Source: Shigella phage Sf25. From it: a stretch of 64,000 bases of DNA. The position numbers and the translations under genes were made by a program. Shown piece after piece: positions 4,010 to 27,624 of this stretch (within the stretch, counting starts at the first letter, position 1; each line of letters opens with the position of its first letter). Location: the sequence record MF327009. One strand, written 5' to 3'. The notes beneath the pieces were generated by a model. It was not told the origin of the DNA, did not search any database, and saw nothing but the letters and a program-made list of their open reading frames with translations.

Positions 4010-4326
4010 CTAGAATCGCAAGAACTTCCACACGAATCGCCCGTCCATACATGAACAGGAACATTAGTGTCATATGAATCAGAACTAGACTGTGTATTCT
4101 GCGTATTAGATGATGTAGTAGGTGTTGACCAGCGCCAAGGATTTTTATAATATTCTTGGGCTTCTTCATAAGTCATAGTAACTGCTTCTACTGTTCCATC
4201 TCCCATATAAACATATTCAACTACAGTTAAAGGAAGGTAGTCATTTGAAATAGGAACTACACCTTCCCCAGGAGTCGTAGAGAAAAAATCCGTAAAGAAA
4301 CTTTTAAACCAATTAAAGATAAACAT
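3985..4326 (-). CDS. hypothetical protein with Cys/Ser-rich C-terminus (113 aa)
   Basis: C-terminal [16 protein letters not shown] tail; start overlaps stop of upstream ORF. Confidence 0.4.
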
Positions 4327-4912: not shown

Positions 4913-4957
4913 ATAAATTCTCGCGGCTTTTAAGTCGTCGTTTATTTAAATGAGCTA

Positions 4958-5720
4958 TTAATAGCCTCGATCTTGACGAGCGAAGTTTTCAGCATTTTTC
5001 AGATAATAAAGTTTAAAGATTTCCTCAGCTGACATTCCAAGAGCAATGAATTTATTCATGAAAAAGTGAAATTGGTCAATCAGTTCAAATTTAATTTCAA
5101 GCTGATCTTCAGGAGATAAGTCTTGAATTTTCTTGGATTGCATTTCAGAATAACGTTTCTTCCAAGGTTTCCATACAGCAGAAGCTTCTTTTTCACCATT
5201 ACTCATACCACCAAGAGAAGTATATAGCTCGCGAGTTTCATCTGCGATATAATCGTCTTGGTTTCGCAACCAAGCAAGAACTTCTCCTGCAGTTTCAAGT
5301 GAATCAGGATGACGATTTGTTTCTGGTTTATCATTAGCCAAACGAATCTGTAAATGCCGCTGCATGTCAAATTTTCTTGGATTGCATTTCAGAATAACGT
5401 TTCTTCCAAGGTTTCCATACAGCAGAAGCTTCTTTTTCACCATTACTCATACCACCAAGAGAAGTATATAGCTCGCGAGTTTCATCTGCGATATAATCGT
5501 CTTGGTTTCGCAACCAAGCAAGAACTTCTCCTGCAGTTTCAAGTGAATCAGGATGACGATTTGTTTCTGGTTTATCATTAGCCAAACGAATCTGTAAATG
5601 CCGCTGCATGTCAAGCATAACCTGCAATGGGTCAATACTGTGCATAATATACTCAGCATATGCACGATTTGCTTTATCAACACCTTCGATCAAATGAGCA
5701 CATTCATTAAAGTGAGCCAT
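4958..5720 (-). pseudogene. 56: gene 56 dCTPase/dUTPase, frameshifted by an internal 244-bp tandem duplication
   Basis: Both ORF pieces (5367-5735 and 4958-5443) carry the same segment; N-terminus MAHFNECAHLIEGVDKANRAY and C-terminus ...KNAENFARQDRGY match T4 gp56; 244 is not a multiple of 3. Confidence 0.7.
5126..5613. repeat. perfect tandem duplication, 2 x 244 bp, inside gene 56
   Basis: 5126-5369 is identical to 5370-5613. Confidence 0.9.
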
Positions 5721-5780
5721 TATTTTTCCTTTCAATTCATTAATAAGTTAAATAATTATATCATTTGAGTATGTAAGCAA

Positions 5781-7120
<1,340 letters not shown>

Positions 7121-7139
7121 TATATCATCCTCAGCAATT

Positions 7140-7176
7140 TGTTTTATAATACCATAACAAGCTGAGAAAGTAAACA
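7140..7176 (-). promoter_or_regulatory. T4-type early promoter (GTTTAC N18 TATTAT)
   Basis: gtaaac at 7170-7175 on plus strand; -10 TATTAT; followed by GAGGATGA RBS and the ATG at 7120. Confidence 0.5.
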
Positions 7177-7213
7177 AATTTATGATAAATATTAATTTAA
7201 AGGAGGACGACGC

Positions 7214-7414
7214 ATGGTACAAAAATTAATGGCACTTGTTAATGCCATCAAAGGTAATAAAAAACGTATAGCTTTTACTATTTCTGCTATGGTAGGAATT
7301 TTACTCTGGAACTTTATTTTATCACCTGTTGCAATTGCACATGGTATTAATATTCCAGTAGTTACTCTTGATACATTCGTAGATTTAGCATTTGCTTTAG
7401 TTGGGTTAATTTAA
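7214..7414 (+). CDS. small hydrophobic protein (66 aa), plus strand
   Basis: AAGGAGGA Shine-Dalgarno 6-8 nt before the ATG at 7214; two hydrophobic segments; fills the gap between gene 61 stop and the next minus gene. Confidence 0.4.
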   Translation: MVQKLMALVNAIKGNKKRIAFTISAMVGILLWNFILSPVAIAHGINIPVVTLDTFVDLAFALVGLI

Positions 7415-8439
7415 ATCTTAGCATATTTAGATAACCTCATTTTAGCCATCAACCCCTGGGCAATATTATTTTTCATATATTCCATAATTTGTTCAGGGGT
7501 TGCACCTTCCTTTCTAATCATATCATTAACATCTTTTGATTTCCAGGGAGATTTATCCCAAAACATAACTCTTTCTCCTGCATCAACTAATTTAGTCATT
7601 CGTTTGATAGTGTCAGGGTGACGAGGTTCATTATCTAAAACCCACACTCGTCTATCTTTAAATGGAACAACTTCTAGGTCTAATTGACCACCCGTAATAG
7701 CTATACCATTTTCAATAAAAAGTGAATCTATAGGTCCTTCTAGAACATATACATCACCATCTTTAACTCGTTCAACACCGTAAATTTTTGTTGCCTCAGG
7801 ATAAGCTTTGATGGTGATATACTTTTGTGGAGCATCTTTCTTTAATGCACGACCTTGAAAAGACTCAGCTTTTCCGTTAGCATTATAAATTGGAATAACA
7901 AGACGAGGCTCAGAAATTTCCTTTTTGTATGTTCCCGGTGCTATGCTATTAACTAATTTAGGCCATTCGGTTGTAAACCAAAGATATTTCCATTTATCCT
8001 TTGGAATACAACGAGCTTTTACATATTTTATAATTGGATGGTCTTCCGCCAGTTTATCTAATCTAACGCATGACGGAAGAGATTTAATTATTTTCTTCTC
8101 AGGCTGTTTAGGAAGTTCTTTAGGTTTTTCTACTGGACGACTTTTACCTTTTTCTTTTCTTATTTCAAAGATATACTCACGATATAAATCAGGTTCAAAC
8201 TCCTTTAAATATATTCCGATTGGTGCATGATAGTTACAGTTATAACAATGAATATTTCCTTCATTATTATCACCATAATACCATCCACGGGCTTTATTTT
8301 GGTCGGTTTTTGAATCTCCACAAACAGGGCATCTAAACCGCAACTTAAAGGTTGAACTATTATTTACTTGTGTAAATTTAGGTAAATGAGCTAATGCACG
8401 GTATGCAAACTCATTATCAATCCAAGGTATTGATGACAT
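7411..8439 (-). CDS. 61: DNA primase gp61
   Basis: 342 aa; zinc ribbon CPVCGDSK...CYNC; length and position match T4 gp61. Confidence 0.85.
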   Translation of the reverse strand: MSSIPWIDNEFAYRALAHLPKFTQVNNSSTFKLRFRCPVCGDSKTDQNKARGWYYGDNNEGNIHCYNCNYHAPIGIYLKEFEPDLYREYIFEIRKEKGKSRPVEKPKELPKQPEKKIIKSLPSCVRLDKLAEDHPIIKYVKARCIPKDKWKYLWFTTEWPKLVNSIAPGTYKKEISEPRLVIPIYNANGKAESFQGRALKKDAPQKYITIKAYPEATKIYGVERVKDGDVYVLEGPIDSLFIENGIAITGGQLDLEVVPFKDRRVWVLDNEPRHPDTIKRMTKLVDAGERVMFWDKSPWKSKDVNDMIRKEGATPEQIMEYMKNNIAQGLMAKMRLSKYAKI

Positions 8440-8441
8440 TT

Positions 8442-8607
8442 TTACTCTTCTTTTTCTTTAGATTCCTCTTTCTTCTTTTTAGGAATCTGTTCAGGACCTT
8501 TATTTACTACAGCACCTGACGTTGTTCCAGTAGAGATATTTTCAGGATTACCACCTGAATCTCCAGCGACCATATCTTCTTTAATAAATTCTTTATATGT
8601 TTTCATA
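8442..8607 (-). CDS. small protein with internal-protein-like N-terminal leader (about 55 aa)
   Basis: Below the ORF-track cutoff; begins MKTYKEFIKE, like the capsid-targeting leader of T4 internal proteins; Lys/Glu-rich tail. Confidence 0.35.
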
Positions 8608-9234
8608 TTAACCTCTATTCATAAAAGCATTAAAAATTTGGTCATCAATAGAAACATTTACTTTAGACTGTTTTTCTGATGGTAATTCATATCCACATAT
8701 CACAATTTTATGATCAATATCAAAATACACAGAAGCAATATGATTAATGATATTTTCAGTGAAGTCTAAATCGACATCAATATCTTTTTGACCAAAGCCC
8801 AAAGGATAAATAATGCGAGTAATTCGATTATCTTTAACAAAGATTCCACCGACATACTCTGTACTGCGTTTAAAGTCTACACGCCGACGAAATGAAAAAT
8901 ATTCAGGCTCTTTATGAGCTCGGCTCATAGGACACAACGAATAACTAGAATAAGAGATGTCAAATCCTACGCCTTCAATATGAGCCAAAGTGTCATGATT
9001 AAACCAATTATAATCGTACGCCAAATCCATTAGATTATAATATGTAAAAGGCACCGGATTAACATCATTAGTCACAAGCATGTAATTAGCAACTGCTATA
9101 ATTTCATTGTTTTTAACGAATACAAACCGTGATTGATGCGAATGACCTGGACCCGCGTTTTCACGATTAATGATATAACACTGGGCACCTTTATATTTGT
9201 ATGTATCTTTGCACTTGTGCATTTGATAGAGCAT
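8608..9234 (-). CDS. hypothetical protein (208 aa)
   Basis: Minus-strand ORF between sp and gene 61. Confidence 0.45.
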   Translation of the reverse strand: MLYQMHKCKDTYKYKGAQCYIINRENAGPGHSHQSRFVFVKNNEIIAVANYMLVTNDVNPVPFTYYNLMDLAYDYNWFNHDTLAHIEGVGFDISYSSYSLCPMSRAHKEPEYFSFRRRVDFKRSTEYVGGIFVKDNRITRIIYPLGFGQKDIDVDLDFTENIINHIASVYFDIDHKIVICGYELPSEKQSKVNVSIDDQIFNAFMNRG

Positions 9235-9527
9235 TATTCACCTACCACTTCAGCGATGATATTTTTGTTATTAAAGTTTTTATCGCAATACAGAACATAA
9301 TTATACTGCATTACACCACCAGACTTAAGCTGTTTTTGCACTTCAGCTTTCATTTCAGGACGATCGCGCTCAACAATATTCATAATATCCGCTTCAATTT
9401 GAGTTTCAACCTCAGTCTGATCAGCAGTCATAGACCATTCGCACAAATCTTTATCATAACCTGCCATAGCAGGCTGAGCAGCACAAGAAGCTAAAGCAAA
9501 AATTGTAGCAAAGATAAATTTTTTCAT
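9234..9527 (-). CDS. sp: periplasmic superinfection-exclusion protein Sp (spackle)-like
   Basis: 97 aa with signal peptide MKKFIFATIFALASCAAQPAMA; size and position between 61 and 41 as in T4. Confidence 0.55.
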   Translation of the reverse strand: MKKFIFATIFALASCAAQPAMAGYDKDLCEWSMTADQTEVETQIEADIMNIVERDRPEMKAEVQKQLKSGGVMQYNYVLYCDKNFNNKNIIAEVVGE

Positions 9528-9554
9528 GATAATCTCCTCAGTAGTTTATGTTTA

Positions 9555-9588
9555 TATAGTATCTCAATTTCCAACAAAAGTAAACAGT
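9555..9588 (-). promoter_or_regulatory. T4-type early promoter
   Basis: gtaaac at 9580-9585 on plus strand with A/T-rich -10 downstream on minus. Confidence 0.45.
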
Positions 9589-9887
9589 TATTTTAAAACT
9601 TCTGTGTAATCACATGTTACAAACTGTTTCTCTAGCTTGACGATTTTACGAAAGTATCTTTTACATTGACGAATCTGTCGCTTAGTAGGGCGCACAGCAA
9701 ACTTAATAAATTCCACTCGACCAAATGGAGGGCTTTCTTCTGATGGAATATCTAACACCAATTCCCATGTATCTGCAATAAGTGCTTTGAATTGAGTATT
9801 TTTCCTAACGTTATACGGAGTAGGTTTAAATAAAACAATATGCATATTATCCTCGGCAATCCACTTCACATACTTTCTTGTCATCAA
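9588..9887 (-). CDS. hypothetical protein (up to 99 aa; true start probably internal)
   Basis: Longest ORF overlaps dmd by about 40 nt. Confidence 0.4.
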   Translation of the reverse strand: MMTRKYVKWIAEDNMHIVLFKPTPYNVRKNTQFKALIADTWELVLDIPSEESPPFGRVEFIKFAVRPTKRQIRQCKRYFRKIVKLEKQFVTCDYTEVLK

Positions 9888-10029
9888 TGAAAGCTTTAAC
9901 TAATGCTTTATTAACTTCAGCATACTGAGTAGTAGCCCATTGAACGTCATCTTTCATCATTGTGGTTTCTTTAGTAAACATGCTTTCATTCTTAAACCAC
10001 CCCATAAAAACTACCTTTACCAATTCCAT
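9847..10029 (-). CDS. dmd: Dmd antitoxin (inhibitor of host RnlA/LsoA toxins)
   Basis: 60 aa MELVKVVFMGWFKNESMFTKE...; size and position immediately downstream of gene 41 as in T4. Confidence 0.7.
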   Translation of the reverse strand: MELVKVVFMGWFKNESMFTKETTMMKDDVQWATTQYAEVNKALVKAFIDDKKVCEVDCRG

Positions 10030-10044
10030 AACAATCTCCTCATT

Positions 10045-10088
10045 TAACCAACAAGATTACTATACCATAGTCTTGTCAGCTTGTAAAC
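10045..10088 (-). promoter_or_regulatory. T4-type early promoter upstream of dmd
   Basis: gtaaac at 10083-10088 on plus strand with the ...gattactataccat... -10 block also seen at 46025-46045. Confidence 0.45.
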
Positions 10089-11515
10089 TAAAATTTTAAT
10101 TCATTTGCCAAAGCATCTAACTGAGCTCGAGTAGATTCATTTCTTTGATAGCGATTCTGCTCAGCCTGAATCTGTTGTGAACCTGCTACTTCGTTCACTT
10201 CAGTTGGAGTAGAATCTTGTTCAATTTCTACCCATTTCTGATTTCCTTTTTGAACACCCATCAAAAACTTATTCCATTTATTCTTATCGCCATATCGTGA
10301 TTTGATTTGCTTAATGAGTTGTTGTTCAGCAGCTGCTAGCTCCTCGGTTTCAATGACCGCAAGCATAAAATCAGCTGTTGCTGGAAGACCAGCAGATTCT
10401 GCAATATCGCTCATGTTAACATCGGAAGAGTCCCAAGCTTGTTTACCAACCTGCGCTGCGGTCCAAAGAACAGTTTCGGTTTCAACAGCAAGAGCACGCA
10501 ATTCCTCTGCAATAGCTTTAACAGTTGTGTAACTATTTTCTGAATAAACTCTAATGCGGCAAGATTTACAAATACCTAGATAGTCGACAATAATGATTGT
10601 TGGAACAAAATTCTTCTTGAGCTTCAATTCATTCAAGAGAGACCTGAATGTATTAGCGTCTGCTCCACCAGTAGGATATTGCTTAACGATTAAACGACCG
10701 AGAGTAGATTTCTCACGCCATTTTTCCATTTTTCCTTTATATTCGGCGTAAGAAATATGTCCATCATCAATATCGTCAAGAGAAACATCGAGCATGTTAG
10801 CATCAATACGTTTAGCACAGACTTCTTCTGCCATTTCCATGGAGATATAAAGAACGTTATGACCAAGCTGCAAATAATCTGCTGCTAATGAGCAAAGTCC
10901 TAATGATTTACCAACGTTAACGCCAGCCATTAAAACGTTCAGTGTTCCTGTTTCAGCTCCGCCTTTTGTAATTTTATTCAAAATACGAAGTTTAAATGGA
11001 ACCTTACGAGCTTTATTCATATAAGATAGCCAGCGTGCTTCGTAGTCATCCATCCAATCATGACCAACGTAGCTATCAAATGAAATTGATAATGCTTGGC
11101 GCATGATGTCAGGAATAGCACCTACATCTGGCATTTTCTTATTTCGTTTTTCCGGAGGAAGCTCAGCATTAGTTTGAATTTCGATTATTTTAGACGTAGC
11201 ATTAAACATCGCCCTTTGCTGAACATATTTTTCTGTTTCTTTTACTAACCAACTATGGTCTTCCGGAGAATCAGCTAGTTTTGAAATAAGTGTTTTTACA
11301 CCAGAATATTCTGTTTCAGTAAATGAACTATTTTCTAATGCAACATTTAACGCATTAATAGATGGAACGCTATGATACTCATTAACATGAGATTTAATTA
11401 ATTTGAATGTATTTTTAGCTGGACCACTTTCAAAATATTCTGAATCCATATATGGCCAAACTTTTGAAAAATAAGCTTGATCAAATATGAGATGAGAAAG
11501 AATAATTTCTACCAC
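10088..11515 (-). CDS. 41: replicative DNA helicase gp41 (DnaB-like)
   Basis: 475 aa; Walker A GVNVGKS; length matches T4 gp41. Confidence 0.9.
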   Translation of the reverse strand: MVEIILSHLIFDQAYFSKVWPYMDSEYFESGPAKNTFKLIKSHVNEYHSVPSINALNVALENSSFTETEYSGVKTLISKLADSPEDHSWLVKETEKYVQQRAMFNATSKIIEIQTNAELPPEKRNKKMPDVGAIPDIMRQALSISFDSYVGHDWMDDYEARWLSYMNKARKVPFKLRILNKITKGGAETGTLNVLMAGVNVGKSLGLCSLAADYLQLGHNVLYISMEMAEEVCAKRIDANMLDVSLDDIDDGHISYAEYKGKMEKWREKSTLGRLIVKQYPTGGADANTFRSLLNELKLKKNFVPTIIIVDYLGICKSCRIRVYSENSYTTVKAIAEELRALAVETETVLWTAAQVGKQAWDSSDVNMSDIAESAGLPATADFMLAVIETEELAAAEQQLIKQIKSRYGDKNKWNKFLMGVQKGNQKWVEIEQDSTPTEVNEVAGSQQIQAEQNRYQRNESTRAQLDALANELKF

Positions 11516-11524
11516 ACTTACTCC

Positions 11525-11881
11525 TTAAAAGAATTTAAATTTTTTCTTTGACCTTTTATTAAATGCATCTTGCAGTTGCATTGTAATACATTTTTCTACA
11601 TGAGGAGCTAACTCAGCTTTTCTTTCTTGGTCAAGAACAGCAAAGTCCATTACAACCTTTCCATCAACCCAATCCAGTTTAGTTACATACACTATATGTG
11701 TAGAACCATCTTCTAGTTTAATGACAATCTCCTGGATAACATTTTCCATAGCGGATTTAATTATCTTAAGAGACTCATTAAAAAGACGTTCTTTTCTTTC
11801 TTTTTCCCCCTCCGAAGAGGGGGATTCATCGATAATTTCTAAATCTAAATCATCTTTACTCATTAAATTCTTCCATATCAC
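11525..11881 (-). CDS. 40: gp40-like protein
   Basis: 118 aa between uvsX and 41, the syntenic position of T4 gene 40. Confidence 0.5.
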   Translation of the reverse strand: MIWKNLMSKDDLDLEIIDESPSSEGEKERKERLFNESLKIIKSAMENVIQEIVIKLEDGSTHIVYVTKLDWVDGKVVMDFAVLDQERKAELAPHVEKCITMQLQDAFNKRSKKKFKFF

Positions 11882-13037
11882 TTAACTGCTCGAGGTCAGT
11901 TTCTAAATCAGCTGCTGATTTACTTTTACTTTCTGGAGATTTAAATTTTTCAACCTTTGAGTTAATCAATTCATCAACTTCAGCTTCAACAATTTCATTA
12001 CTATCAATAGCACCTAACTGATAAGCACGTTTAATAGCATCTCGGAATGGCTGATGCTTAAATAAAGGACCCCAGAATGTAGTGCAGTTGGTATCTTTTG
12101 CACGCCAAGATTTTTCTTCGCGAATCATCTCACCGGTTTCTTCGTCAAGAAATTCACGAGCATACCAGCCATTTTTAGGTTTTACCACAAATCCTAATTC
12201 AAGAGCCATATCTAACAATCCAGAATAAGGATCGATGCCACCGTCAAATTTAACATCAATAAAGAATTTACTTTTTTCTTTAACGGTACGAGATTTTTCT
12301 ACATTTAGAACAAATTGATACCCCTGAAGATCAGAACCATCTTTAATCTGGCGCTTACCGATAATGAATACAGTATCAGCCGAATACATTACGCCTGTAC
12401 CACCTGTCATCACGGTTTTACTAAACATTTCAATTGTTTCAATTGTATGGTTAACCGCAACACATGGAATATTTTTAATGCTAAAGTAAGGAGTAACAAT
12501 ACGGAATAATGACTTCAGTGATTTAGCACGAGTCATATCTGCCACAGATTTTTCATTCAAGGCATCTTCAGTTTCTTTCTTAGAAGCCATATTACCGATT
12601 GAGTCGATGAATACAATAACTTTTTCACCGCGCTCAATAGCTTCAAGCTGATTCACCATATCAATTTTTAGCTGTTCAACTGACTGAATCGGCGTATGAA
12701 TTACTCGTTCTGGGTCAACCCCCATGGATCGCAAATAAGCTGGAGTAATACCAAATTCGCTATCATAGAATAGACAAACCGCGTCAGGATATTTGTTCAA
12801 ATATGCCGCAACCATAGTCAAAGACATATTTGATTTAAAGTGTTTAGAAGGCCCTGCGAAAATAGTTAAACCAGACTGCATACCGCCATCAATCGCACCA
12901 GAAATAGCAATATTAAGCATTGGAATTTTTGTACGAATTACATCCTTTTCATTAAAGAATTTAGATGTAGTCAGTTCAGCAGTCATTTTAGAAGTGGAAG
13001 CTTTAATCAAACGGGATTTTAAATCTGCAATAGACAT
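11856..13037 (-). CDS. uvsX: RecA-like recombinase UvsX
   Basis: 393 aa; N-terminus MSIADLKSRLIKASTSK...; Walker A GPSKHFKS; acidic C-terminal tail. Confidence 0.9.
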   Translation of the reverse strand: MSIADLKSRLIKASTSKMTAELTTSKFFNEKDVIRTKIPMLNIAISGAIDGGMQSGLTIFAGPSKHFKSNMSLTMVAAYLNKYPDAVCLFYDSEFGITPAYLRSMGVDPERVIHTPIQSVEQLKIDMVNQLEAIERGEKVIVFIDSIGNMASKKETEDALNEKSVADMTRAKSLKSLFRIVTPYFSIKNIPCVAVNHTIETIEMFSKTVMTGGTGVMYSADTVFIIGKRQIKDGSDLQGYQFVLNVEKSRTVKEKSKFFIDVKFDGGIDPYSGLLDMALELGFVVKPKNGWYAREFLDEETGEMIREEKSWRAKDTNCTTFWGPLFKHQPFRDAIKRAYQLGAIDSNEIVEAEVDELINSKVEKFKSPESKSKSAADLETDLEQLSDMEEFNE

Positions 13038-13114
13038 TCATTTTTTCCATAGGCATCATTATATTTTCCTCACTGGTTAAAGATAGAGTAATTATAACAC
13101 AATAAATTTAGGCA

Positions 13115-13963
13115 TTAATCAACTGCTATTGGATGAATAGCATTAAACTTATGAAATGCTTCTGATTTTTCTTTACGTGAAACGCACATGCGAAGAACCT
13201 TTAATGGTTCGTCTTCTTCACCCAACGATTTTCGTTTTTCAATATTAGAAGTTTTCCAACGAGCTTGCTCTGGAAACTCTCTATTGATTTGCTCAAGCGC
13301 TCTATTATGTTTAGAATTACTACGAATTGAACTGCACCCGCCAGGAGCTTGTGCTTTTCCAGATACAACCAGATATTTGAACAAGGCCAAATGCGGATAA
13401 CCTTGATTAATTAAATTGAGAAATGCATACATATCTTCGCACAAATCAATTTTTCCATACCCAATTTGTTCTGTCGTAAGTTTTCCAAGGTCATACCATG
13501 TATTCGTGAATCCATATGAATTTTCACGATAATTACCCCAAGATGAAGTAATTTTAAAAATTGGTAGGCGAGCATGACCATGATAATACCCGCAATCCAT
13601 GGCATCCTCAACGTATTGAATCAATTCATAGAACTGTTCACGGGTTAATTGATTGACTTTATCTACACAACGACGGTCATCTCTTTTTCGCATTGAACTC
13701 ATACGAATAGTAGTATCATCGTCAATCATCCAGATTCGTTGACCTGCATACATATCAGTAATTGCTTTACGAGTACCGGCAATTCCGTTTACATCATCAG
13801 GAATAGTTATAATTTTAGCTCTAGACCCATAAGCGTCATAATAAGCTTTTTCTTCATGTTCACGCACTACAATATGGGGTTCATAATCAGTCGGAAACAT
13901 ATCAAGGGCAGAAACTGCCCCGACACGCTGATAACTTGGAATTACGAATTGAATCATTTCCAC
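13115..13963 (-). CDS. putative DNA glycosyltransferase (GT-A-like) at the beta-gt locus
   Basis: 282 aa with IWMIDDDTTI (DxD-type motif); occupies the position of T4 beta-gt but does not resemble it as recalled. Confidence 0.45.
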   Translation of the reverse strand: MEMIQFVIPSYQRVGAVSALDMFPTDYEPHIVVREHEEKAYYDAYGSRAKIITIPDDVNGIAGTRKAITDMYAGQRIWMIDDDTTIRMSSMRKRDDRRCVDKVNQLTREQFYELIQYVEDAMDCGYYHGHARLPIFKITSSWGNYRENSYGFTNTWYDLGKLTTEQIGYGKIDLCEDMYAFLNLINQGYPHLALFKYLVVSGKAQAPGGCSSIRSNSKHNRALEQINREFPEQARWKTSNIEKRKSLGEEDEPLKVLRMCVSRKEKSEAFHKFNAIHPIAVD

Positions 13964-14808
13964 TCACCGTTATAATCTTTTTTCACAATATGAGTTTCGC
14001 CAGTATTCCACCAATGATCAACCAAGTAAAAATGACGAGAATATACATGAAGACTTCCAACATTCCATATAATAGAACCTGCTTTATACTGACGAGTTGA
14101 ATCGCCGGCATTCAAATCAGATACTAATTTATCTAATACGTATTTTTGCCATGCATAATCATTACGGAATCCGAAGACCACGTCATTTGAGCGCATGCTT
14201 ACTACTGCATTGACTTTCTTATCACGAATCAGGTACTGTACTGTATTAGTACACATGAAATCTGACATACCATCTTTATTGTAGTCAAATTGCATGGATG
14301 GACGAGTCATGCTTACTACTGCATTGACTTTCTTATCACGAATCAGGTACTGTACTGTATTAGTACACATGAAATCTGACATACCATCTTTATTGTAGTC
14401 AAATTGCATGGATGGACGAGTATAAATCATGATACCACGTCGAGAATCAGGATTTTGACCAAGTTCAGCTAAACACATATCATACTGGGCATAGTTATCT
14501 TCTGACCAAATAGCCCAACCATAATTCGAGTTAATTTCGCCTTTAGAAGATGCTACCTGCTGCCAAATCTTTGGTGTTTCGCCTGGAATATCTTTGACAA
14601 ACAGACTTTGAGACTTGTACCATTCAAGTTCACGCTGAATGTATTCATCATTAAGAGCGCCAAAAATAAAGGGTTCATCTGCTACAAATGATGCGCCAAT
14701 AATTTCAATAGTTTTAACACCGGTTTTATCAACTACGAAATCTTTTTCTTTTAATGCAAGCCCCAAATGAAGACGGATTTCTTCAACTGTCATAAAGTCA
14801 CTAATCAT
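13954..14808 (-). CDS. 42: dCMP hydroxymethylase gp42, with in-frame 38-aa internal duplication
   Basis: 284 aa, 38 more than T4 gp42 (246), exactly the duplicated block SMTRPSMQFDYNKDGMSDFMCTNTVQYLIRDKKVNAVV. Confidence 0.85.
   Translation of the reverse strand: MISDFMTVEEIRLHLGLALKEKDFVVDKTGVKTIEIIGASFVADEPFIFGALNDEYIQRELEWYKSQSLFVKDIPGETPKIWQQVASSKGEINSNYGWAIWSEDNYAQYDMCLAELGQNPDSRRGIMIYTRPSMQFDYNKDGMSDFMCTNTVQYLIRDKKVNAVVSMTRPSMQFDYNKDGMSDFMCTNTVQYLIRDKKVNAVVSMRSNDVVFGFRNDYAWQKYVLDKLVSDLNAGDSTRQYKAGSIIWNVGSLHVYSRHFYLVDHWWNTGETHIVKKDYNGEWK
14194..14421. repeat. perfect tandem duplication, 2 x 114 bp, inside gene 42
   Basis: 14194-14307 is identical to 14308-14421; in-frame. Confidence 0.9.
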
Positions 14809-15860: not shown

Positions 15861-15879
15861 ATCCGTATTAGTTGATAGT

Positions 15880-15913
15880 TGTATAGTACCATGGAAGAAC
15901 AGTCTTGTAAACA
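15880..15913 (-). promoter_or_regulatory. T4-type early promoter
   Basis: gtaaac at 15906-15911 on plus strand plus the conserved ...ggtactatacaactatcaacta -10 block shared with 41812, 43250 and 57937. Confidence 0.5.
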
Positions 15914-15993
15914 GTTTTGTGAAAATTTTTTAGGGAATTCTAAAGGTCCAGAATCATCTGTTTTTCATAAGTATAGATTTATATTACTTGTAT

Positions 15994-16028: not shown

Positions 16029-18872
16029 TCAGCCAAACAGGAAGTCTAACGAAGCTTTTTCTTCATAGTCCATACCAGCCGATTCACACATGCCTGCAAG
16101 CGGTTTAACAAACGATTTTTGGAACAAAGTTGAGTAGTCAATCCAAGACAGTACGTCAGAACGAATTTCTTTTGGAAGTTCTGTACCCGACGGCCAAGCA
16201 ATGCATTTGTCACCAAATGGATTTCCTTCACGCAATGGAAGAACCATTACTTTATTTCCATCCAAAATTGGAGCTACACCTAAACCGCTAACAGCTCGAC
16301 GATAAGTTAGCACACCACGAATATGGAACGGACATTTAAATCCTGGCCAACCTTTATCATCATATTTCGCTATATCGTTCGCAGTTTTTACTTCAGCAAT
16401 AACTTTATAGTCAAGTTGACGATATTCTTTCTCGAAGTTCTTGTAATATTCTTGGACAGACTCTTCACCTTCCTGAAGAATACGACGAATACTTTCTTCG
16501 AGAGCTTCTTGGACCGCTTTAGGCGTTGAACTCTGCTGAGTTTCCATACCCATGATTTTTAGATGCGGTTCAGCAAATCGCTTATCTTCCATATCATATA
16601 CGTTCAGAGCATAACGCTTTTTCGCTTTCCAAAATCCGCCAACGCCCTTTGAACCAAGTGGAGGGCAAGAAATAGCTTCACGGTCCATATGCATCAGATG
16701 CTCGCGGTTATTCATATAATCACATAACTCACGATATGCAACATCAATCATAGGTTCCATCTTTTTCTTACCGAACTGATTCATGAATTCAACTAAATCG
16801 TTCTGCTCTTTGAATCGGTCAAGACCAACTTTTTCAATAACTTTATCTACACAAACATATACCGAATCAGTATCACCTGCTGCAATGAAATCTTCGCCAT
16901 TAGTTCCGCATACTTTATTCAGATATTCATTAATTTTACGAGCAATCCACTGAATACCAACTTGGCCGAAAATTGTGATAGCAGTAGCATTTCGCAAATC
17001 ATAGTAACGGAAATGAATATTACCAAGAGCACCATAAAGACTGTTAATAAGAATTTTACGGTTCAGCTGATTTGTGTTAGCAAGTGTAGCTGCTTTTTCA
17101 CACTCTTCGATCAAACTATTAAGAACAGATTCGGTGTAATTCGATAGTTCATTTAAGAAATCATCACTGAACTTAACATATCGTTCAACTTCTGGTTTAG
17201 TTGAGCAAGACCCTGCGCCTTTCATAATAATCTTTTTAATAGCTTCGGCATTCATTTCTTCAGCGAACATTTTCTTTTTCCAATCTTTACGCTGGAAAAA
17301 TACTTTAGCGATTTCCTTTGGAATGATACCTTCTTGATGCTTATCATACATCCATCCATTCGGAGAACAAGAATATTCATCACTCGGTTTAGGAGCTGTT
17401 CCTGCGATATATTCATGAATTGGATGAACTTTAAACTGACCACGAATAGTCTCAGGACTAATGTTAACCTGACGAATAATGCTCGGATACAGAGACGTCA
17501 AGTCAAAACTCATAATATATCGACGAGCAATTGGTTTAGGTTCAAACACAAATGCACCCGGAAAACTCTGTTTAACGTGCGAACCTTGTTGAGGAATAAC
17601 CTTATGTTCACCTTTCAATGAGTTAAAAATAATAGCATCCCAAGTTTTAATAGGACTCATTACACCGGAAAAAGGCATTTTAGCGTAATAAGACATACTT
17701 AAAACTAGATCGATAAACCCGCGAATTTTATCAATTGCTTGAACTGATTCTACGTCAATGATGTTATAACTAATGTATCGTTGATGATTAGTCTCACGAA
17801 GTTTATTAATAGGACCGTCGTATGGTAATTTACCTTTTTTGGTTTCATGTTGAGCAACTGATTCCAAAGAGAATGACGGCAAATTAGTAAAAGCGAATTT
17901 CTTGTACAAATCTAAATAATCAAGAATAGATACGCCATCAATAGAATAAATTTCTTTGCTGCCGTACATATTTTGAATTAGTTTGGATTTTACCCGACCG
18001 ATTGGAGAGAAACGTTTCATACTGCGTTCGCCTAGAATCATTTTAACACGATTCATGATATATGGAACGTCAAACCCCTCAATATTCCAACCGGTAAAAA
18101 TAGCAGGTCGTTTCTGTTCCCAGAGATTGATATATTCCATGAGCATATCACGCTCATTATCGAATGGCATATAAATTACTCGGTCAAGAATTTCTTGAGG
18201 AACTTCATCACCACCTTCACAGTCAAGCTTAGCAGCTAACTTTGCATCCCATTTTGATACTGAACCGTACATTGAATTCAAAAGGTCGAAAACATAAAAA
18301 CGATCGTCAATTGAATCGTAATGAGTGATAGCATCAATTTCATATTCAGCTTTCATTGGGTCAGGAAATTTATCACCAGTAACCTCAATGTCACAGTTAG
18401 CTACACGAACACCGTACATTGAATTCAAAAGGTCGAAAACATAAAAACGATCGTCAATTGAATCGTAATGAGTGATAGCATCAATTTCATATTCAGCTTT
18501 CATTGGGTCAGGAAATTTATCACCAGTAACCTCAATGTCACAGTTAGCTACACGAACAAATTTTCGGTCATAAACAATTTCTGAACCATATGTATCACTG
18601 ATATAAGCGAGTTTAAAATCGTTCATACCGAGAGCTTCGAGACCGATGTCTTCCATTCGCTTCATCCAATCTCGAGCATCTTTCATTGATGGAAATTTTT
18701 GAGGAGCGCAGTTTTTACCATAGATGTCTTTGTACTTTGACTCTTCCTTACAATGCCTAAACATAGTTGGAAGATATTCTACTTCACGAGTACGTTCCTT
18801 TCCATTTTCATCAATATAACGTTCAACAATATTATTTCCGACTGTTTCAATAGAGATATAAAATTCTTTCAT
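16029..18872 (-). CDS. 43: DNA polymerase gp43 (family B), with in-frame 49-aa internal duplication
   Basis: 947 aa, 49 more than T4 gp43 (898), exactly the duplicated block VRVANCDIEVTGDKFPDPMKAEYEIDAITHYDSIDDRFYVFDLLNSMYG; exonuclease and polymerase motifs present. Confidence 0.9.
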   Translation of the reverse strand: MKEFYISIETVGNNIVERYIDENGKERTREVEYLPTMFRHCKEESKYKDIYGKNCAPQKFPSMKDARDWMKRMEDIGLEALGMNDFKLAYISDTYGSEIVYDRKFVRVANCDIEVTGDKFPDPMKAEYEIDAITHYDSIDDRFYVFDLLNSMYGVRVANCDIEVTGDKFPDPMKAEYEIDAITHYDSIDDRFYVFDLLNSMYGSVSKWDAKLAAKLDCEGGDEVPQEILDRVIYMPFDNERDMLMEYINLWEQKRPAIFTGWNIEGFDVPYIMNRVKMILGERSMKRFSPIGRVKSKLIQNMYGSKEIYSIDGVSILDYLDLYKKFAFTNLPSFSLESVAQHETKKGKLPYDGPINKLRETNHQRYISYNIIDVESVQAIDKIRGFIDLVLSMSYYAKMPFSGVMSPIKTWDAIIFNSLKGEHKVIPQQGSHVKQSFPGAFVFEPKPIARRYIMSFDLTSLYPSIIRQVNISPETIRGQFKVHPIHEYIAGTAPKPSDEYSCSPNGWMYDKHQEGIIPKEIAKVFFQRKDWKKKMFAEEMNAEAIKKIIMKGAGSCSTKPEVERYVKFSDDFLNELSNYTESVLNSLIEECEKAATLANTNQLNRKILINSLYGALGNIHFRYYDLRNATAITIFGQVGIQWIARKINEYLNKVCGTNGEDFIAAGDTDSVYVCVDKVIEKVGLDRFKEQNDLVEFMNQFGKKKMEPMIDVAYRELCDYMNNREHLMHMDREAISCPPLGSKGVGGFWKAKKRYALNVYDMEDKRFAEPHLKIMGMETQQSSTPKAVQEALEESIRRILQEGEESVQEYYKNFEKEYRQLDYKVIAEVKTANDIAKYDDKGWPGFKCPFHIRGVLTYRRAVSGLGVAPILDGNKVMVLPLREGNPFGDKCIAWPSGTELPKEIRSDVLSWIDYSTLFQKSFVKPLAGMCESAGMDYEEKASLDFLFG
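18264..18557. repeat. perfect tandem duplication, 2 x 147 bp, inside gene 43
   Basis: 18264-18410 is identical to 18411-18557; in-frame. Confidence 0.9.
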
Positions 18873-19214: not shown

Positions 19215-19542
19215 GTTTTTGTTTAAAAGAAATAACTCGGAAGTTATTAGTTAAATCTTTCATAAAAGTTCTTTGACCAGGAACGATTTCAATCAATCCC
19301 CAATCTTCTAACAACCATGCAATCGAATCACGACGAACTTCATCTTCTTCTGCCATTTCAACTTGACGACCATCCATACGAAGCATTTCTTTAAAATGAA
19401 CGATATAGTATAGTCCTTTTTTCTGAAGAATATGACAGGACTGATACAGAACTTTATCTTTATTATTAGCAATTCCCATACGAGTCAAAGTTTCTTTTAC
19501 TTTCAGAAAATCTTCAGGTTTTTTAAGAGTAATTTCAATCAT
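19174..19542 (-). CDS. regA: translational repressor RegA
   Basis: 122 aa, equal to T4 RegA; position between 62 and 43. Confidence 0.8.
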   Translation of the reverse strand: MIEITLKKPEDFLKVKETLTRMGIANNKDKVLYQSCHILQKKGLYYIVHFKEMLRMDGRQVEMAEEDEVRRDSIAWLLEDWGLIEIVPGQRTFMKDLTNNFRVISFKQKHEWKLVPKYTIGN

Positions 19543-19605
19543 TTTACCATTCCAATGCTAGTTTTTTGAGTTGTTTCTGTTCTTTTACGTTCTTAGTCAC
19601 TTCTT

Positions 19606-19989
19606 TCAAAAAATCATATCTTCGACCAGTTTTGCCCATTTACCATATCTTTTACCACGAGGAACTGCAGCCATCAGATAATTAAAATGAGCTTCATCAC
19701 TTAAGCCTGATCCAATTAAATTCATAGCATATACAGCTGGCATGCACTCTGGAAATTGTGATAATGCATTTTCAACCATGAATTTTGAATAATCTTTTTG
19801 AGCAATAGAGCATTTAGTTTTATTATTAATAGCTCCAATTATTTCAAAAAATTCATTTTCAGCTTTTTCTTTAAAAGAATCAGCAGCAGATTGGACAGCT
19901 GTCCAATCTTTTGAATACCAAGCAACTTGATGCTCGTTTAATTGAATATCATCTTCAAATAAGCTCATATCACTTCCACTGCATTTCAC
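19606..19989 (-). pseudogene. 62: clamp-loader subunit gp62, truncated (apparent internal out-of-frame deletion)
   Basis: 127 aa versus 187 in T4; ends ...[11 protein letters not shown]; the short stretch before regA encodes, out of frame, KEVTKNVKEQKQLKKLALEW* which resembles the T4 gp62 C-terminus as recalled. Confidence 0.55.
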
Positions 19990-20929
19990 ATGCTAATTGA
20001 ATGAAAAGATAAGCTAAATGTAATTCAGTGTTAGCTGCAATACCATGATACTGATTATTTTCACCAACAATTTCGTACATACGAATAATACTTTGCGGAG
20101 TTACACGTGAATAGATTTCTTCGGCAAGTTTACCCACGAACCACGAATAATCAGCTGCATATTTTGGTGCTAAAGCTCTGAGTTGTTTAACATCTTTATT
20201 TTTGAGAGACTCAAGAACATCATCAATAGCACCACGATCGTTAGTAACCAGTGATAAAATACCAGCATCCAAAACACCTTTAGATGAATAACTATCGAGC
20301 TCACCAATAGTTTTACGAAAATCAGGAAAATTCTTTTTAACCAAAGCTGCTACAACTTTCATATCAGCTATAGCAATTCCTTCATGCTTGCAGATTTCAG
20401 TCAATCGACGAATCATCTGCTTCATCATTTCAATTTTATCTTCATCGGTCGGTTGACCGAATGTAATAACTCGGCAGCGTGACTGGAGAGGTTTAATAAT
20501 ACCATCAATATTGTTAGCAGTAATAATAATACTACAGTTTGAACTATAAGCTTCCATAAAGGAACGAAGATGTCGCTGAGACTCTGCTAACCCTGAGCGG
20601 TCAAATTCATCAATAACGATTACTTTTTGACGACCATCAAATGAAGCGGCGCTGGCAAAATTAGTCAAAGGACCACGAACGAAATCAATTTTACAATCTG
20701 ACCCATTCACAAACATCATATCAGCATTTACATCATGACACAATGCTTTCGCTACAGTTGTTTTACCTGTTCCTGGAGAAGGAGAATGAAGAATAATATG
20801 TGGAATTTTACCTTTACTTGTAATAGATTTAAAGGTTTCTTTATCAAAGGCGGGAAGAATACATTCATCGATAGTAGATGGACGATATTTCTGTTCAAGA
20901 ATGTGTTCTTTTTCATTTACGGTAATCAT
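19970..20929 (-). CDS. 44: clamp-loader ATPase gp44
   Basis: Walker A GTGKTT, SRC motif; start taken at MITVNEKEH (319 aa as in T4). Confidence 0.9.
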
Positions 20930-20963
20930 AATTTCCTCATACAAGTTTTAGTGTAAATTATAA

Positions 20964-20977
20964 AGGGCCGAAGCCCT
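20964..20977 (-). other. intercistronic RNA stem-loop (UUCG tetraloop) between 45 and 44
   Basis: agggc-cgaa-gccct on plus strand. Confidence 0.4.
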
Positions 20978-20980
20978 CTA

Positions 20981-21667
20981 TTAAAAATCGTGGGTAGAAT
21001 CAGCTTCAAGAGCTACTACATAATTCGCATGTTCACCTTCAAATTTAGCAGCGCCTTGTTTACCTTTTGCCCAAAGCAGAAGTTTATAATTTCCTGGTTG
21101 CATTTTCATATTTGCCATATTGATAATGAAATTAAATGTATTTTCACCATCATAATCACCAAGAGTCAAAGAATATTTAACACGGGTAAGAGCAGAATCT
21201 TCTACTTTATTAAAACCGTTAATTACGATTTTACCTTCTTTTACCGTGATAGCAATTGTATCAATTTGCAGACCACGAGATACACGCAACAGCTGTTGAA
21301 GGTCTTCAGCTTTAATTTCAGTAACAACAGATGCTACCGGGAATGGAATTGGTTTATTAGGAGCAACTACTGTACTCGGATCGGCTGCTGGCCAAAAAAT
21401 TGTTGAACGAGCATCAGCAATTTTAATATTTCCATCTTCTGACTGGGAAATTTCTGCATCATCATTAACTAGAGACAGAATACCGAGAAAACCGTTCAAA
21501 TCGTAAATTGCTACATCAAAATCAATAACGTCAGAAATATTTGCTTCCGCATAAGTTGTACCATTAACTGCGCGAGTCATAATAAATTGACCGGATTTAA
21601 GCATAATACCGGAGTTAATAGTAGCGAAATTTTTAAGCAGAGCAGTAGTATCTTTAGACAGTTTCAT
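20981..21667 (-). CDS. 45: sliding clamp gp45
   Basis: 228 aa, same length as T4 gp45; position. Confidence 0.9.
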   Translation of the reverse strand: MKLSKDTTALLKNFATINSGIMLKSGQFIMTRAVNGTTYAEANISDVIDFDVAIYDLNGFLGILSLVNDDAEISQSEDGNIKIADARSTIFWPAADPSTVVAPNKPIPFPVASVVTEIKAEDLQQLLRVSRGLQIDTIAITVKEGKIVINGFNKVEDSALTRVKYSLTLGDYDGENTFNFIINMANMKMQPGNYKLLLWAKGKQGAAKFEGEHANYVVALEADSTHDF

Positions 21668-21722
21668 GTAATTTCCTTCAATTCAAATGAGATTTAATTT
21701 TATAACTAATTTAATAAAGCAA

Positions 21723-22112
21723 TTAACGATTAAAATCAGCCGCAATTGTTTCAGCAACAATTTGAGCAGCAACAATTAGGCGTTCATCTGCATTACCGCA
21801 ATATTCATCTTCTAAACGTTCACCGCATGAAGTCATAATAAATTTAGCACCGGCGTTTAGGGATTCTGCAGTATGTTTGCGCATTAGTTCAATCCATTTA
21901 TTACTTACTTCACGATCGATAGCTTCATAATACGCATGACGAGCAGGTGCAGATTTAATTTTGTTCTGAATAACTTCCATTGCGTTATCAGAAAGAGACA
22001 AAACCCATGCGCGACGAATTTTATTTTGGTTTTGCGGATTTGAGTCAGAACGCACGTGTTTTGGCTGAATATCTTTTACATCAACAGTATAATTCACAGT
22101 AATTTTAGTCAT
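21723..22112 (-). CDS. rpbA: RNA-polymerase-binding protein RpbA
   Basis: 129 aa, same length as T4 RpbA, between 46 and 45. Confidence 0.6.
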
Positions 22113-22121
22113 AATACACCT

Positions 22122-22310
22122 TTAGTCATAATAATCAGTAACAGTCCAAGCTTCATTTCTATTGGACATTATTTTTGTATATTCTGCTTTAAATGCATTC
22201 CTAAGCATAGATTCAGTAACTATATGCTCTTCATTAGAAAAATTATTTCTCAGAATATATCGTTTTATTTCAGGAAAAGTTAATAGATGCTGTCCAGTTG
22301 AATATTCCAT
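22122..22310 (-). CDS. hypothetical protein (62 aa)
   Basis: Minus-strand ORF; a 10-bp inverted repeat lies upstream at 22321-22365. Confidence 0.4.
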   Translation of the reverse strand: MEYSTGQHLLTFPEIKRYILRNNFSNEEHIVTESMLRNAFKAEYTKIMSNRNEAWTVTDYYD

Positions 22311-22365
22311 GTTTTTCCTCCATAGAGATTATACTCTAATAAATTAAAGCATAATCTCTTATAAA

Positions 22366-24048
22366 TTAAACCATTACAGTAAATCGACCAACTTTCTTCA
22401 TTTGAAGATGCTGACCATATTCTTGCGGGTCATGGTCTTTATGCGAAATTATAAAAACATTAGTGTTTTTCATTGAATTTATAATATTAGCTACACCTTT
22501 AATACCTTCGGCATCAAATGACCCATCAAACACTTCATCGAGTATTAACGTACTAATACTAACACCAGATACAATAGAAGCAATATCACGCCAAGTAAAT
22601 AAAAGAGCAATATCAATTCGTGCTTTTTCACCTTCACTAAATGAAGCATAACTAAAATCTTCACGACCACGGGATTTAATTGTCTCATTAAATTCTTCAT
22701 CTAATGTAAACACATAATCCGCTTCCATTATTTTAAGATAATGGTTAATCTGCTTATTAAATAATGGAACGTACTTTTTAATAATAGCACCTTTAATACC
22801 AGAATCTTTGAGCATATCAGTCAAAATTCCTCGGTGGTATTTTTCCATTACTAAATTAGTTTTTGTCTTAACAATTTTATCAAGTTCTTCTTGAAGCAGT
22901 GCTATTTCATCAGCATGGTCAATAAACTCAGAAGATGCTTTTTCTATAGCTGCTTTAACTTTTTTAGCTTTATCTACCGTCGTGATTAGAGATTGCTTTT
23001 TATTGCGAATATCATTTGCCAACGACTGCTGAGTTTTAATATTATCTCGGTATTCATCAACAAGAACTTTTAAATTATCACGGTGTGTTGAAAGCTGTTC
23101 AAACGAATGCGTACATTCAGAAACTTTATCTTTAATTTTAGAAACAACTTTATCACCGGAACTTAATTGTGACAAACAGGTTGGACATAATCCACCTTCG
23201 TGATACATATTAATGACTTTATTATACGAGTCAATTTTTGATTTAATTAAAACTGCTTCTTGACCGATTTTATTAAATGCATCAGTCGGGTCTTCATCCA
23301 AAACAATATTAACTAATCTTTCGTTAGCTTCTTCTATTTCCGATTTTAGCGTTCTAGCTTCTTTTGCCAAATCATCATACATATTTTGTAGACGTGTAAG
23401 GTTGTCACCCGTTAATTTTTTCTGGCGTTCAACGTTATCATTATATATTTTAATTTGTTGGATAATACTATCTTTTTTAACATCAAGCACTTGGTTCTGC
23501 GAATTTAATTCACGTATTAGTGCTTTATTAAGCTTATCCATTTCAGCTAATGTTCCTACCTCAAGCAGGTCTTCCACAAGCTTTCTTCGCGCAGGGGTCG
23601 ACAAACCCATGAAAGGGGTATACCCTGCTGTACCAAGGACAACAATCTGCTTGAAACTGGCATATGACATTCCGATAAGCTGTTCAAATTCTGCTTGGAA
23701 ATCTTTACTGCTGGCAGATTCATTAAGACGTGTACCGTTAACGGTGATTTCGAAAACGTTTGGTTTTTGTCCTCTTTTGATATAGTACTTTTTCTCATCA
23801 TATTCCATCCACAGTTCAACTAAAAGTTCTTTCTTATTTGTGCTGTTTATTAATTGACCTTTCTTTACATCACGAAATGGCTTGCCAAAAAGCCCAAATG
23901 TGATGGCTTCTAACATAGTAGACTTACCACCGCCATTTCGGCCAGTAATAAGAGTTTTTTGAACCTTATCTAATTGAATGTCAATAGGATTTCCACCTAC
24001 TGACATTATATTTTGATACCTAACTCGGTTTAGTTTAAAATTCTTCAC
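22366..24048 (-). CDS. 46: recombination nuclease subunit gp46 (Rad50/SbcC-like ATPase)
   Basis: 560 aa; Walker A GRNGGGKST, central coiled coil with CPTC hook, signature and Walker B LILDEVFDG. Confidence 0.9.
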   Translation of the reverse strand: MKNFKLNRVRYQNIMSVGGNPIDIQLDKVQKTLITGRNGGGKSTMLEAITFGLFGKPFRDVKKGQLINSTNKKELLVELWMEYDEKKYYIKRGQKPNVFEITVNGTRLNESASSKDFQAEFEQLIGMSYASFKQIVVLGTAGYTPFMGLSTPARRKLVEDLLEVGTLAEMDKLNKALIRELNSQNQVLDVKKDSIIQQIKIYNDNVERQKKLTGDNLTRLQNMYDDLAKEARTLKSEIEEANERLVNIVLDEDPTDAFNKIGQEAVLIKSKIDSYNKVINMYHEGGLCPTCLSQLSSGDKVVSKIKDKVSECTHSFEQLSTHRDNLKVLVDEYRDNIKTQQSLANDIRNKKQSLITTVDKAKKVKAAIEKASSEFIDHADEIALLQEELDKIVKTKTNLVMEKYHRGILTDMLKDSGIKGAIIKKYVPLFNKQINHYLKIMEADYVFTLDEEFNETIKSRGREDFSYASFSEGEKARIDIALLFTWRDIASIVSGVSISTLILDEVFDGSFDAEGIKGVANIINSMKNTNVFIISHKDHDPQEYGQHLQMKKVGRFTVMV

Positions 24049-24308
24049 AAAAGATTCCTTTTAATGTATCTTTTAGACCATTCTATCATATCATCATAAT
24101 CTAAAAAGTATTCATCAAATTCAGCCATGCAAACAACACCTTGTACTGTTTTTGATGTAATATAAATTATTCCAACATATCTGGAATCTTCTTCGGTGTA
24201 ATCAATATTTGCTACGAATTCATCGTTAATGTCAAATGTCGAAAACTTCACAGTATGCATCCTTAATACAAGATACAGCCATATCTCGTAATGATTTAGG
24301 TGTGTCAT
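24045..24308 (-). CDS. hypothetical protein (87 aa)
   Basis: Minus-strand ORF between 47 and 46. Confidence 0.4.
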   Translation of the reverse strand: MTHLNHYEIWLYLVLRMHTVKFSTFDINDEFVANIDYTEEDSRYVGIIYITSKTVQGVVCMAEFDEYFLDYDDMIEWSKRYIKRNLL

Positions 24309-24495
24309 TATCTAAAATGTTGAAGTTAAAAGATACAGCCCAGTCAGTGCAGACCGTAACCTTTTTAATACAATCATCTTCAACCTCTAGCGGTTCAAAC
24401 CAATATTCAATAATTTCTTTATTCCCAATATCATCTTTTACTTCGCATTCAAAATGCTGACTCATCATAACATTTTTAAATTCATCAAAAGTCAT
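24232..24495 (-). CDS. hypothetical protein (87 aa)
   Basis: Minus-strand ORF between 47 and 46. Confidence 0.4.
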   Translation of the reverse strand: MTFDEFKNVMMSQHFECEVKDDIGNKEIIEYWFEPLEVEDDCIKKVTVCTDWAVSFNFNILDNDTPKSLRDMAVSCIKDAYCEVFDI

Positions 24496-25511
24496 TGTGT
24501 TGCCTCTACATATAACTGATTTGCATATTGAATAAGTGCTTCGCGATCAGAATCAGTGATGTCTGGAATTGCATTAATGTATTCTTCCATCAACGTCTGA
24601 AGAGATTGAACTTCCACTTCTTCGCTATCATCTGACTCAACAGAGTTATCAATCTTTGACACAACTCGTAATGAATGCACAACTTTTTCTAGTTCAGATT
24701 CGAACTTCGTTAAATTTTTGTCTACTTCAGTTACTATAACACGCACTGATAGATTTGTAAAATCTTTATAGTCAATTTTTCCCTTAAATGGATATTGAAT
24801 TCGACGATGCCAGGTAGTGTTGTTTGGAATAAATTCCATTCGTTCTGTTTCTGTATCAAACATCCAGAACCCGCGAGGGTCATTCTCGTCACCTGCAGTT
24901 AGTGTCCATGGTGTCCCAATATATCTGACGTTAGCAGCCTCAGAGATAGTATGGAAGTGACCAGACCACACTTCTTTATAAGTCTTAAGGAAATCAGGTT
25001 CAAGACCATGAGATTTCATTCCTTTATAAAAATAAAATCCGTTCAGTTCCCAGTGACCAACGCAAAAAGAAGCAAATGAAGTTTTGATGTGTTCAAGAAT
25101 TTCACCAGTATTTTCTTCGCACATCCAAGGAATTAAATCAATCAAACATCCGTCAAAATCTACTGTAGTAGGCTTATCATATACTTTAACATTAGAATAT
25201 TTAGCCAAAAGCTCAGTAGAAGCATTTGGAGTTAAAGTATTTTTAAAGTGCATATCATGGTTTCCTACAACAGTATGTAGGGTAATACCAGCATCATCAA
25301 GCATTTGAACTATTTCACGGGCGAACTCCATAGTTTTATGTGTGATTGCTTTTCGCACATCAAAAATATCGCCGTATTGAATCCATGTAGTAATTCCATT
25401 TTTCTTAGAATATTCTATTGCTTGTTTAATTCCATCCAACTGAATGGATTGAACCCACTCATCATCGGCTTTAACACCTAAATGCCAATCACCTAAATTT
25501 AAAATTTTCAT
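24492..25511 (-). CDS. 47: recombination nuclease subunit gp47 (Mre11/SbcD-like)
   Basis: 339 aa; phosphoesterase motifs GDWHLG, GDIFD, GNHD. Confidence 0.9.
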   Translation of the reverse strand: MKILNLGDWHLGVKADDEWVQSIQLDGIKQAIEYSKKNGITTWIQYGDIFDVRKAITHKTMEFAREIVQMLDDAGITLHTVVGNHDMHFKNTLTPNASTELLAKYSNVKVYDKPTTVDFDGCLIDLIPWMCEENTGEILEHIKTSFASFCVGHWELNGFYFYKGMKSHGLEPDFLKTYKEVWSGHFHTISEAANVRYIGTPWTLTAGDENDPRGFWMFDTETERMEFIPNNTTWHRRIQYPFKGKIDYKDFTNLSVRVIVTEVDKNLTKFESELEKVVHSLRVVSKIDNSVESDDSEEVEVQSLQTLMEEYINAIPDITDSDREALIQYANQLYVEATQ

Positions 25512-25670
25512 ATATCAAGAACCGTCATTGAAATGCAAAATAAAATTATTGAAATAAATCCATCTGGAGTGCTAAAGAACCCAATCCAACATGCTCTAGT
25601 GAATAGATAAAATGCGAGAAAAAGTATCACATATCCAAGAAATATCATTATATCAAACTCCGTATAAAGC

Positions 25671-27623: not shown

Positions 27624-27624
27624 A

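Follow-up and report, generated by a model that had tools for sequence, protein, structure and literature searches.

Gene 56 of bacteriophage T4 encodes gp56, a dCTPase/dUTPase that belongs to the all-α NTP pyrophosphohydrolases. The only setting in which a T-even phage is known to do without this enzyme is that of the laboratory phage T4dC, which has mutations in genes 42, 56, denB, and alc; in T4, loss of gp56 is tolerated only together with loss of denB and alc (PMC1635256). The locus described here lies in a 64-kb window (the whole stretch of DNA that was analyzed, 64,000 nucleotides in length) from a T4-like phage (Tequatrovirus). When a 244-nt tandem duplication in this locus is collapsed to one copy, the resulting open reading frame (ORF) is like T4 gene 56 both in sequence and in its position between soc and dam; as written, it differs from T4 gene 56 in being interrupted, with residues 1–117 followed by a stop codon and residues 36–172 encoded in another frame. 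Genes 42 and 56, which in T4dC carry the mutations amC87 and amE51, respectively, are likewise both altered in the window; however, the lesions in the window are perfect duplications and not point mutations, and the damage extends to genes 43 and 62.

A second point of comparison is provided by the genuine tandem duplications of T4 and the gene "accordions" of large DNA viruses, which, like the repeats in the window, are head-to-tail direct repeats. Real tandem duplications and accordions are usually kilobases in length, arise at short homologies, and are selected for the benefit that they bring; unlike the repeats described below, they are not known to occur eight at once inside essential genes.

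Genome context and interruption of gene 56

The closest relative of the window is Shigella phage Sf24 (MF327008.1), with 98.6% identity over the first 25 kb; no record reached 99% or more. Stretches at 5300–13500, 19300–30200, 33600–35900, and 58600–64000 are 99.7–100% identical to Sf24 and alternate with stretches of 95–97% identity, a mosaic of the kind that recombination between T4-like phages typically produces; the boundaries between the stretches do not consistently match the junctions of the duplications and deletions described below. The exact 337-aa NrdC.11-like protein of the window led to a single contig, that of phage AR1 (AP011113.1), which is ~96% identical. The window also contains a dispersed family of 45–70 nt repeats (plus strand, ...GATAGTTGTATAGTACCA...TGTAAACAACTTTGTGAAAA) at 15869–15931, 30150–30212, 41800–41862, 43239–43301, 57925–57987, and 61517–61579, together with related families. 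On the minus strand these repeats resemble the early promoters of T4 (−35 element, GTTTAC; −10 element, TATAAT-like), and they lie upstream of minus-strand genes, as is expected in a T-even phage.

Removal of one copy of the 244-nt repeat yields a 172-aa protein that is identical at 172/172 residues to gp157 of Sf24, annotated as "dCTP pyrophosphatase, similar to T4 gp56" and encoded between soc and dam; the collapsed protein differs at two residues (170/172 identical) from its counterpart in phage G9062 (MK373779.1). It matches PHROG 173 (nucleoside triphosphate pyrophosphohydrolase; E = 2.7e-44) and scores 21.6 bits against the Pfam family dUTPase_2, for which the cutoff is 22.9; a sequence search found no solved structure for it. 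In the window, as in relatives, the gene is flanked by soc and dam, all three being on one strand. A 1.3-kb segment centered on the locus matches 508 phage records, in which the annotations are dCTP pyrophosphatase, Dam methyltransferase, and Soc, and an intact gene 56 of 171–172 aa is found directly downstream of dam at all ten loci (10/10) that encode the identical Dam protein. The interrupted gene is thereby confirmed as gene 56, a predicted dCTPase gene; the preliminary description of this DNA had made the same assignment, which is borne out by the match to Sf24 gp157 and by PHROG 173. Between soc and gene 56 (4926–4939), Sf24 and G9062 have ~335 nt, with two small ORFs, that are missing from the window. 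The same short arrangement occurs at four of the loci compared (L002, L003, L008, and L011), and this absence is therefore natural variation and not an artefact.

Positions 5126–5369 and 5370–5613 are one and the same 244-nt sequence arranged head to tail, with 100% identity. This identity, claimed in the preliminary description, proved exact by repeat search, by Tandem Repeats Finder (period 244, 2.0 copies, 100% matches, 0 indels, score 978), and by a script comparing the two strings. A perfect repeat of 244 nt cannot arise by chance. Beyond the unit, the match continues for a single base to the right (5614) and for none to the left, as determined by script. The first copy (5126–5369) encodes residues ~36–117 of gp56 on the minus strand, and the second (5370–5613) is surplus sequence in comparison with all relatives: the BLAST segments aligned with Sf24, with G9062, and with the loci that align across that part of gene 56 break at 5370, where the subject jumps back by 244 nt. 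A 38-mer across the junction gave 0 matches in viral, metagenome, and genome contig collections, and a 40-mer centered on it gave 0 matches in 50,697 phage records.

Because 244 leaves a remainder of 1 when divided by 3, the duplication shifts the reading frame. From the native ATG at 5720, frame 0 encodes gp56 residues 1–117 with 100% identity (tblastn match at 5720–5370), reads through copy 2 (residues 36–117), and stops at a TGA that is created by the junction (5367–5369, minus strand; ...AAA ATT TGA CAT GCA...), so that the product ends in ...SKKI. This N-terminal fragment of 117 aa (5367–5720, minus strand) lies within a 122-aa ORF (5367–5735, minus strand) that is counted from a mechanical upstream TTG start. 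The C-terminal fragment belongs to a 161-aa ORF (4958–5443, minus strand) that starts at an ATG at 5443, in the wrong frame within copy 2, and consists of 25 out-of-frame residues followed by gp56 residues 36–172 (tblastn match at 5371–4961). The two ORFs overlap by 77 nt and each holds the 244-nt block, in agreement with the preliminary description, in which the duplication was said to shift the frame and to produce two overlapping ORFs that both contain it. As written, gene 56 has no uninterrupted ORF of 171–172 codons, and its fragments lie in different frames. A compensating frameshift elsewhere, which had been entertained as a means of restoring the gene, is excluded: no downstream shift can restore the frame because the stop codon stands exactly at the junction.

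Duplications and deletions across the window

A scan of the whole window revealed eight perfect tandem duplications of exactly 2.0 copies, that in gene 56 included, all of them confined to the first 40 kb of the 64 kb. The duplicated units measure 208, 244, 114, 147, 177, 249, 249, and 249 nt; in all eight, the copies match at 100% of positions with 0 indels (Tandem Repeats Finder and script), and only 0–2 matching bases extend beyond the unit at any of the junctions (script). The effects on genes other than gene 56 were read by tblastn of Sf24 proteins against the window. The 208-nt duplication (2238–2653) takes in modA.2, a small gene, together with the DNA upstream of it, and modA.2 is consequently present twice. 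The 114-nt duplication (14194–14421) lies inside gene 42, the gene for dCMP hydroxymethylase, and lengthens its product by 38 aa (284 vs. 246 aa); the 147-nt duplication (18264–18557) lies inside gene 43, the DNA polymerase gene, and lengthens its product by 49 aa (947 vs. 898 aa). The 177-nt duplication (31301–31654) spans the boundary between nrdD and nrdG, and the three 249-nt duplications fall in nrdC.4 (37330–37827), nrdC.5 (38569–39066), and nrdC.6 (39764–40261), adding 83 aa to each product.

All eight blocks are present in single copy in Sf24 and G9062, and the alignments with these genomes break exactly at each junction, where the subject jumps back by the length of the unit. For the first three duplications the comparison extended to the ten loci with the identical Dam protein, some of which are too divergent to align across the gene 56 block; wherever these loci align, the block is again single copy; the three 249-nt blocks are single copy in phage AR1, and the block at 37330 is spanned in single copy in the best 8 of 506 matching phage records. 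A distinctive 46-mer adjoining the duplication at 37330 had no match among viral contigs, and look-ups for exact proteins left the 117-aa N-terminal fragment of gp56, the 161-aa ORF, the 284-aa gp42, and the 947-aa gp43 all unmatched.

Blunt deletions, at least three in number (156, 139, and 145 nt), are also present in the window. Each shows up in comparison with at least two relatives and is without microhomology. The 156-nt deletion (1417/1418) lies in modA, is in frame (52 codons lost), and is seen against 12/12 relatives compared. The 139-nt deletion (19617/19618) lies inside gene 62, which encodes a clamp loader subunit; the missing sequence is present in Sf24 and G9062, and gp62 keeps residues 1–117, loses residues 118–164, and has its last 23 residues in another frame (tblastn). 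The 145-nt deletion (46830/46831), seen against Sf24, G9062, and AR1, removes the 3′ end of mobD.6 and the adjoining intergenic region, and MobD.6 loses its last 29 aa (tblastn). The duplications and deletions affect essential and non-essential genes and intergenic DNA alike.

Two further differences, which may be either natural or of the same artificial origin as that inferred below for the other events, are not counted as definite artefacts. An 84-nt intergenic difference at 58903/58904 is seen against Sf24 only. A difference of ~80 nt near 60015 (about 60010–60021) has 11 nt of microhomology and fuses tRNA-Leu with tRNA-Gln; ARAGORN predicts 9 tRNAs in the window, with an 82-nt tRNA-Leu and no tRNA-Gln, and 10 tRNAs in Sf24.

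Compatibility with phage growth

Essential replication genes are hit independently by these events: gene 56 is split, genes 42 and 43 carry insertions of 38 and 49 aa, respectively, and gene 62 lacks 139 nt and is frameshifted, a combination that is not compatible with phage growth. T4 cannot replicate its DNA without genes 43 and 62, whatever the base in the DNA, and their damage argues against any reading in which the duplication in gene 56 belongs to a viable phage, whether one with cytosine DNA like that of T4dC or one in which the fragments comprising residues 1–117 and 36–172 complement each other. Such a reading is highly improbable on other grounds as well. It is not credible that eight duplications, free of divergence between copies and of microhomology, were fixed as mutations at the same time; the genes for α- and β-glucosyltransferase are present and stand in the same order as in aligned relatives; the collapsed gp56 is 100% conserved, with no sign of relaxed selection; and the junction occurs in no relative. 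In its favor are the alteration of gene 42 as well as gene 56, an in-frame gp56 ATG (5364–5362) located 1 nt after the stop codon (junction AAA ATT TGA C ATG), and the viability of 42−/56− phages in which denB and alc have been lost (PMC1635256). The description of gene 56 as essential accordingly holds under a condition, since T4 mutants in genes 56 and 42 form plaques if denB and alc are also mutated (PMC1635256). The simultaneous alteration of genes 42 and 56 in the window is a curious coincidence with respect to T4dC. On the T4 map, denB and alc lie outside the 64-kb window.

A real split dCTPase, with fragments that would be active together through reinitiation at UGACAUG or through a +1 shift, or with gp56 made dispensable by cytosine DNA as in T4dC, is exceedingly improbable. 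The junction (5362–5372, minus strand) includes the sequence AUU UGA C, which resembles CUU UGA C, the +1 frameshift site of prfB, and lacks an upstream Shine-Dalgarno-like element. Given twelve other anomalies of the same style, the UGACAUG and the prfB-like features at the junction are probably coincidental. The conclusion of the preliminary description that a phage with the sequence as written should not grow is judged correct.

Real events could also have come from defective genomes, either in a heavily passaged or mutagenized stock or in a phage with a replication or recombination defect, and have been captured in the consensus. The occurrence of many small duplications and deletions together is in keeping with such an origin, and illegitimate recombination in T4 is known to yield both tandem duplications and deletions. 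However, it typically uses short homologies, whereas the eight events here have 0–2 matching bases at their end points, and that in gene 56 has 1. Variants of this kind would moreover make up only a minority of the molecules and would not all appear in the consensus, and a ceiling of 249 nt has no biological rationale; we therefore regard defective genomes as a very unlikely source.

Origin of the repeats and implications for phage genomes

We infer that the 244-nt duplication is, very probably, a sequence-joining error and not a product of biology, because there are eight duplications with zero divergence, because their junctions are blunt, because they are absent from relatives, and because several essential genes are damaged; the ceiling of 249 nt, reached three times, and the perfect conservation of the underlying gp56 protein lead to the same judgment. 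The preliminary description had recognized a repeat that is indeed present in the sequence and had named an assembly artefact as one explanation of it, but had taken the duplication in isolation, whereas it is one of eight, accompanied by at least three blunt deletions; it is the seven sister duplications and the deletions that decide the matter for an artefact.

An error of this kind would arise if pieces of a T4-like genome, be they contigs or consensus segments, were ordered and then concatenated. Where neighboring segments overlapped, their shared end would be written twice, producing a perfect two-copy tandem repeat; where neighbors did not meet, the missing bases would be dropped, producing a blunt deletion. 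The join at 5369/5370 would have fallen by chance inside gene 56, and the true gene would be an intact dCTPase gene of 172 codons whose protein is identical to that of Sf24. Between events, base-level quality is high, with, for example, 99.78% identity and 0 gaps over 8,938 nt compared with Sf24, and the errors are therefore structural joins and not the result of noisy reads. Whether the error occurred in the assembler, in scaffolding, or in later file handling cannot be told from the sequence.

The lengths of the repeats bear on the kind of joining that would be involved. The 249-nt ceiling, reached three times, suggests reads of 250 nt. The duplicated lengths do not correspond to one constant overlap equal to the k-mer of an assembler, as they range from 114 to 249 nt and only 249 recurs; this variation rules out simple concatenation with a fixed k, not variable overlaps limited by read length, and because of it no specific assembler can be named. 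Of the eight lengths, six can be divided evenly by 3 (P ~0.02 if the events are independent, ~0.10 if the three 249-nt events share one cause), which is not expected of an artefact and is regarded as chance combined with the 249-nt ceiling. A break of the assembly graph caused by mixed strains was also considered as the source of the joins. The mismatch tracks were suggestive, but a permutation test relating the joins to changes in similarity was weak (P = 0.03–0.15 with Sf24 and 0.75–0.89 with G9062), and this reading is not claimed.

A deposited genome offers a related case. Escherichia phage BYEP02 (OR757454.1; 154,724 bp, "complete genome") contains three two-copy tandem repeats of 77 nt within 7.5 kb (locus L012, positions 1297–1448, 4164–4318, and 6871–7024), two of them 100% identical and one 96%, which look like untrimmed contig overlaps with k = 77. 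BYEP02 was examined as a second carrier of the gene 56 duplication and rejected, as its gene 56 is intact at 172 codons and the additional 77 nt are located in the interval from gene 56 to dam. Like the window, BYEP02 has scattered two-copy repeats that are absent from relatives, are blind to gene boundaries, and number several per record; it differs in that its repeats all measure 77 nt, as is typical where a k-mer sets the overlap, in contrast to the 114–249 nt repeats and blunt deletions of the window. A literature search for a directly citable description of terminal k-mer repeat artefacts found none.

That errors of this class are found in a genome that was really deposited also counts against a different non-biological explanation, in which the changes were added to a correct genome after assembly, by editing, simulation, or file handling. 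This explanation would account for blunt junctions that lack microhomology and have no clear relation to sequence features or to divergence boundaries, for the narrow size ranges (114–249 nt duplicated, 139–156 nt deleted), and for the failure of the altered sequence to match the public records, contigs, and called proteins searched. It is nevertheless unlikely: the unaltered parent genome was not found either, the best match being 98.6%, and three events of exactly 249 nt point to a technical ceiling, perhaps the read length minus one, and not to lengths that were freely drawn.

Were the gene 56 duplication real, the current understanding of how hydroxymethylcytosine DNA is made would be called into question by a T-even phage that lives with no intact dCTPase, and, by way of the two fragments, such a phage would provide a natural split nucleotide-sanitizing enzyme in a T-even phage. 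On the preferred reading, that of a joining error, the window holds at least 11 structural errors in 64 kb, and gene calls made across them (split gp56, lengthened gp42, gp43, and NrdC.4–6, truncated gp62, and possibly the fused tRNA) are unfit for annotation, for the building of protein families, and for evolutionary inference as long as the joins have not been compared with reads. Scanning of whole records for perfect two-copy tandem repeats is a cheap check on the quality of phage genomes, one that at least one deposited T4-like genome, that of BYEP02, fails.
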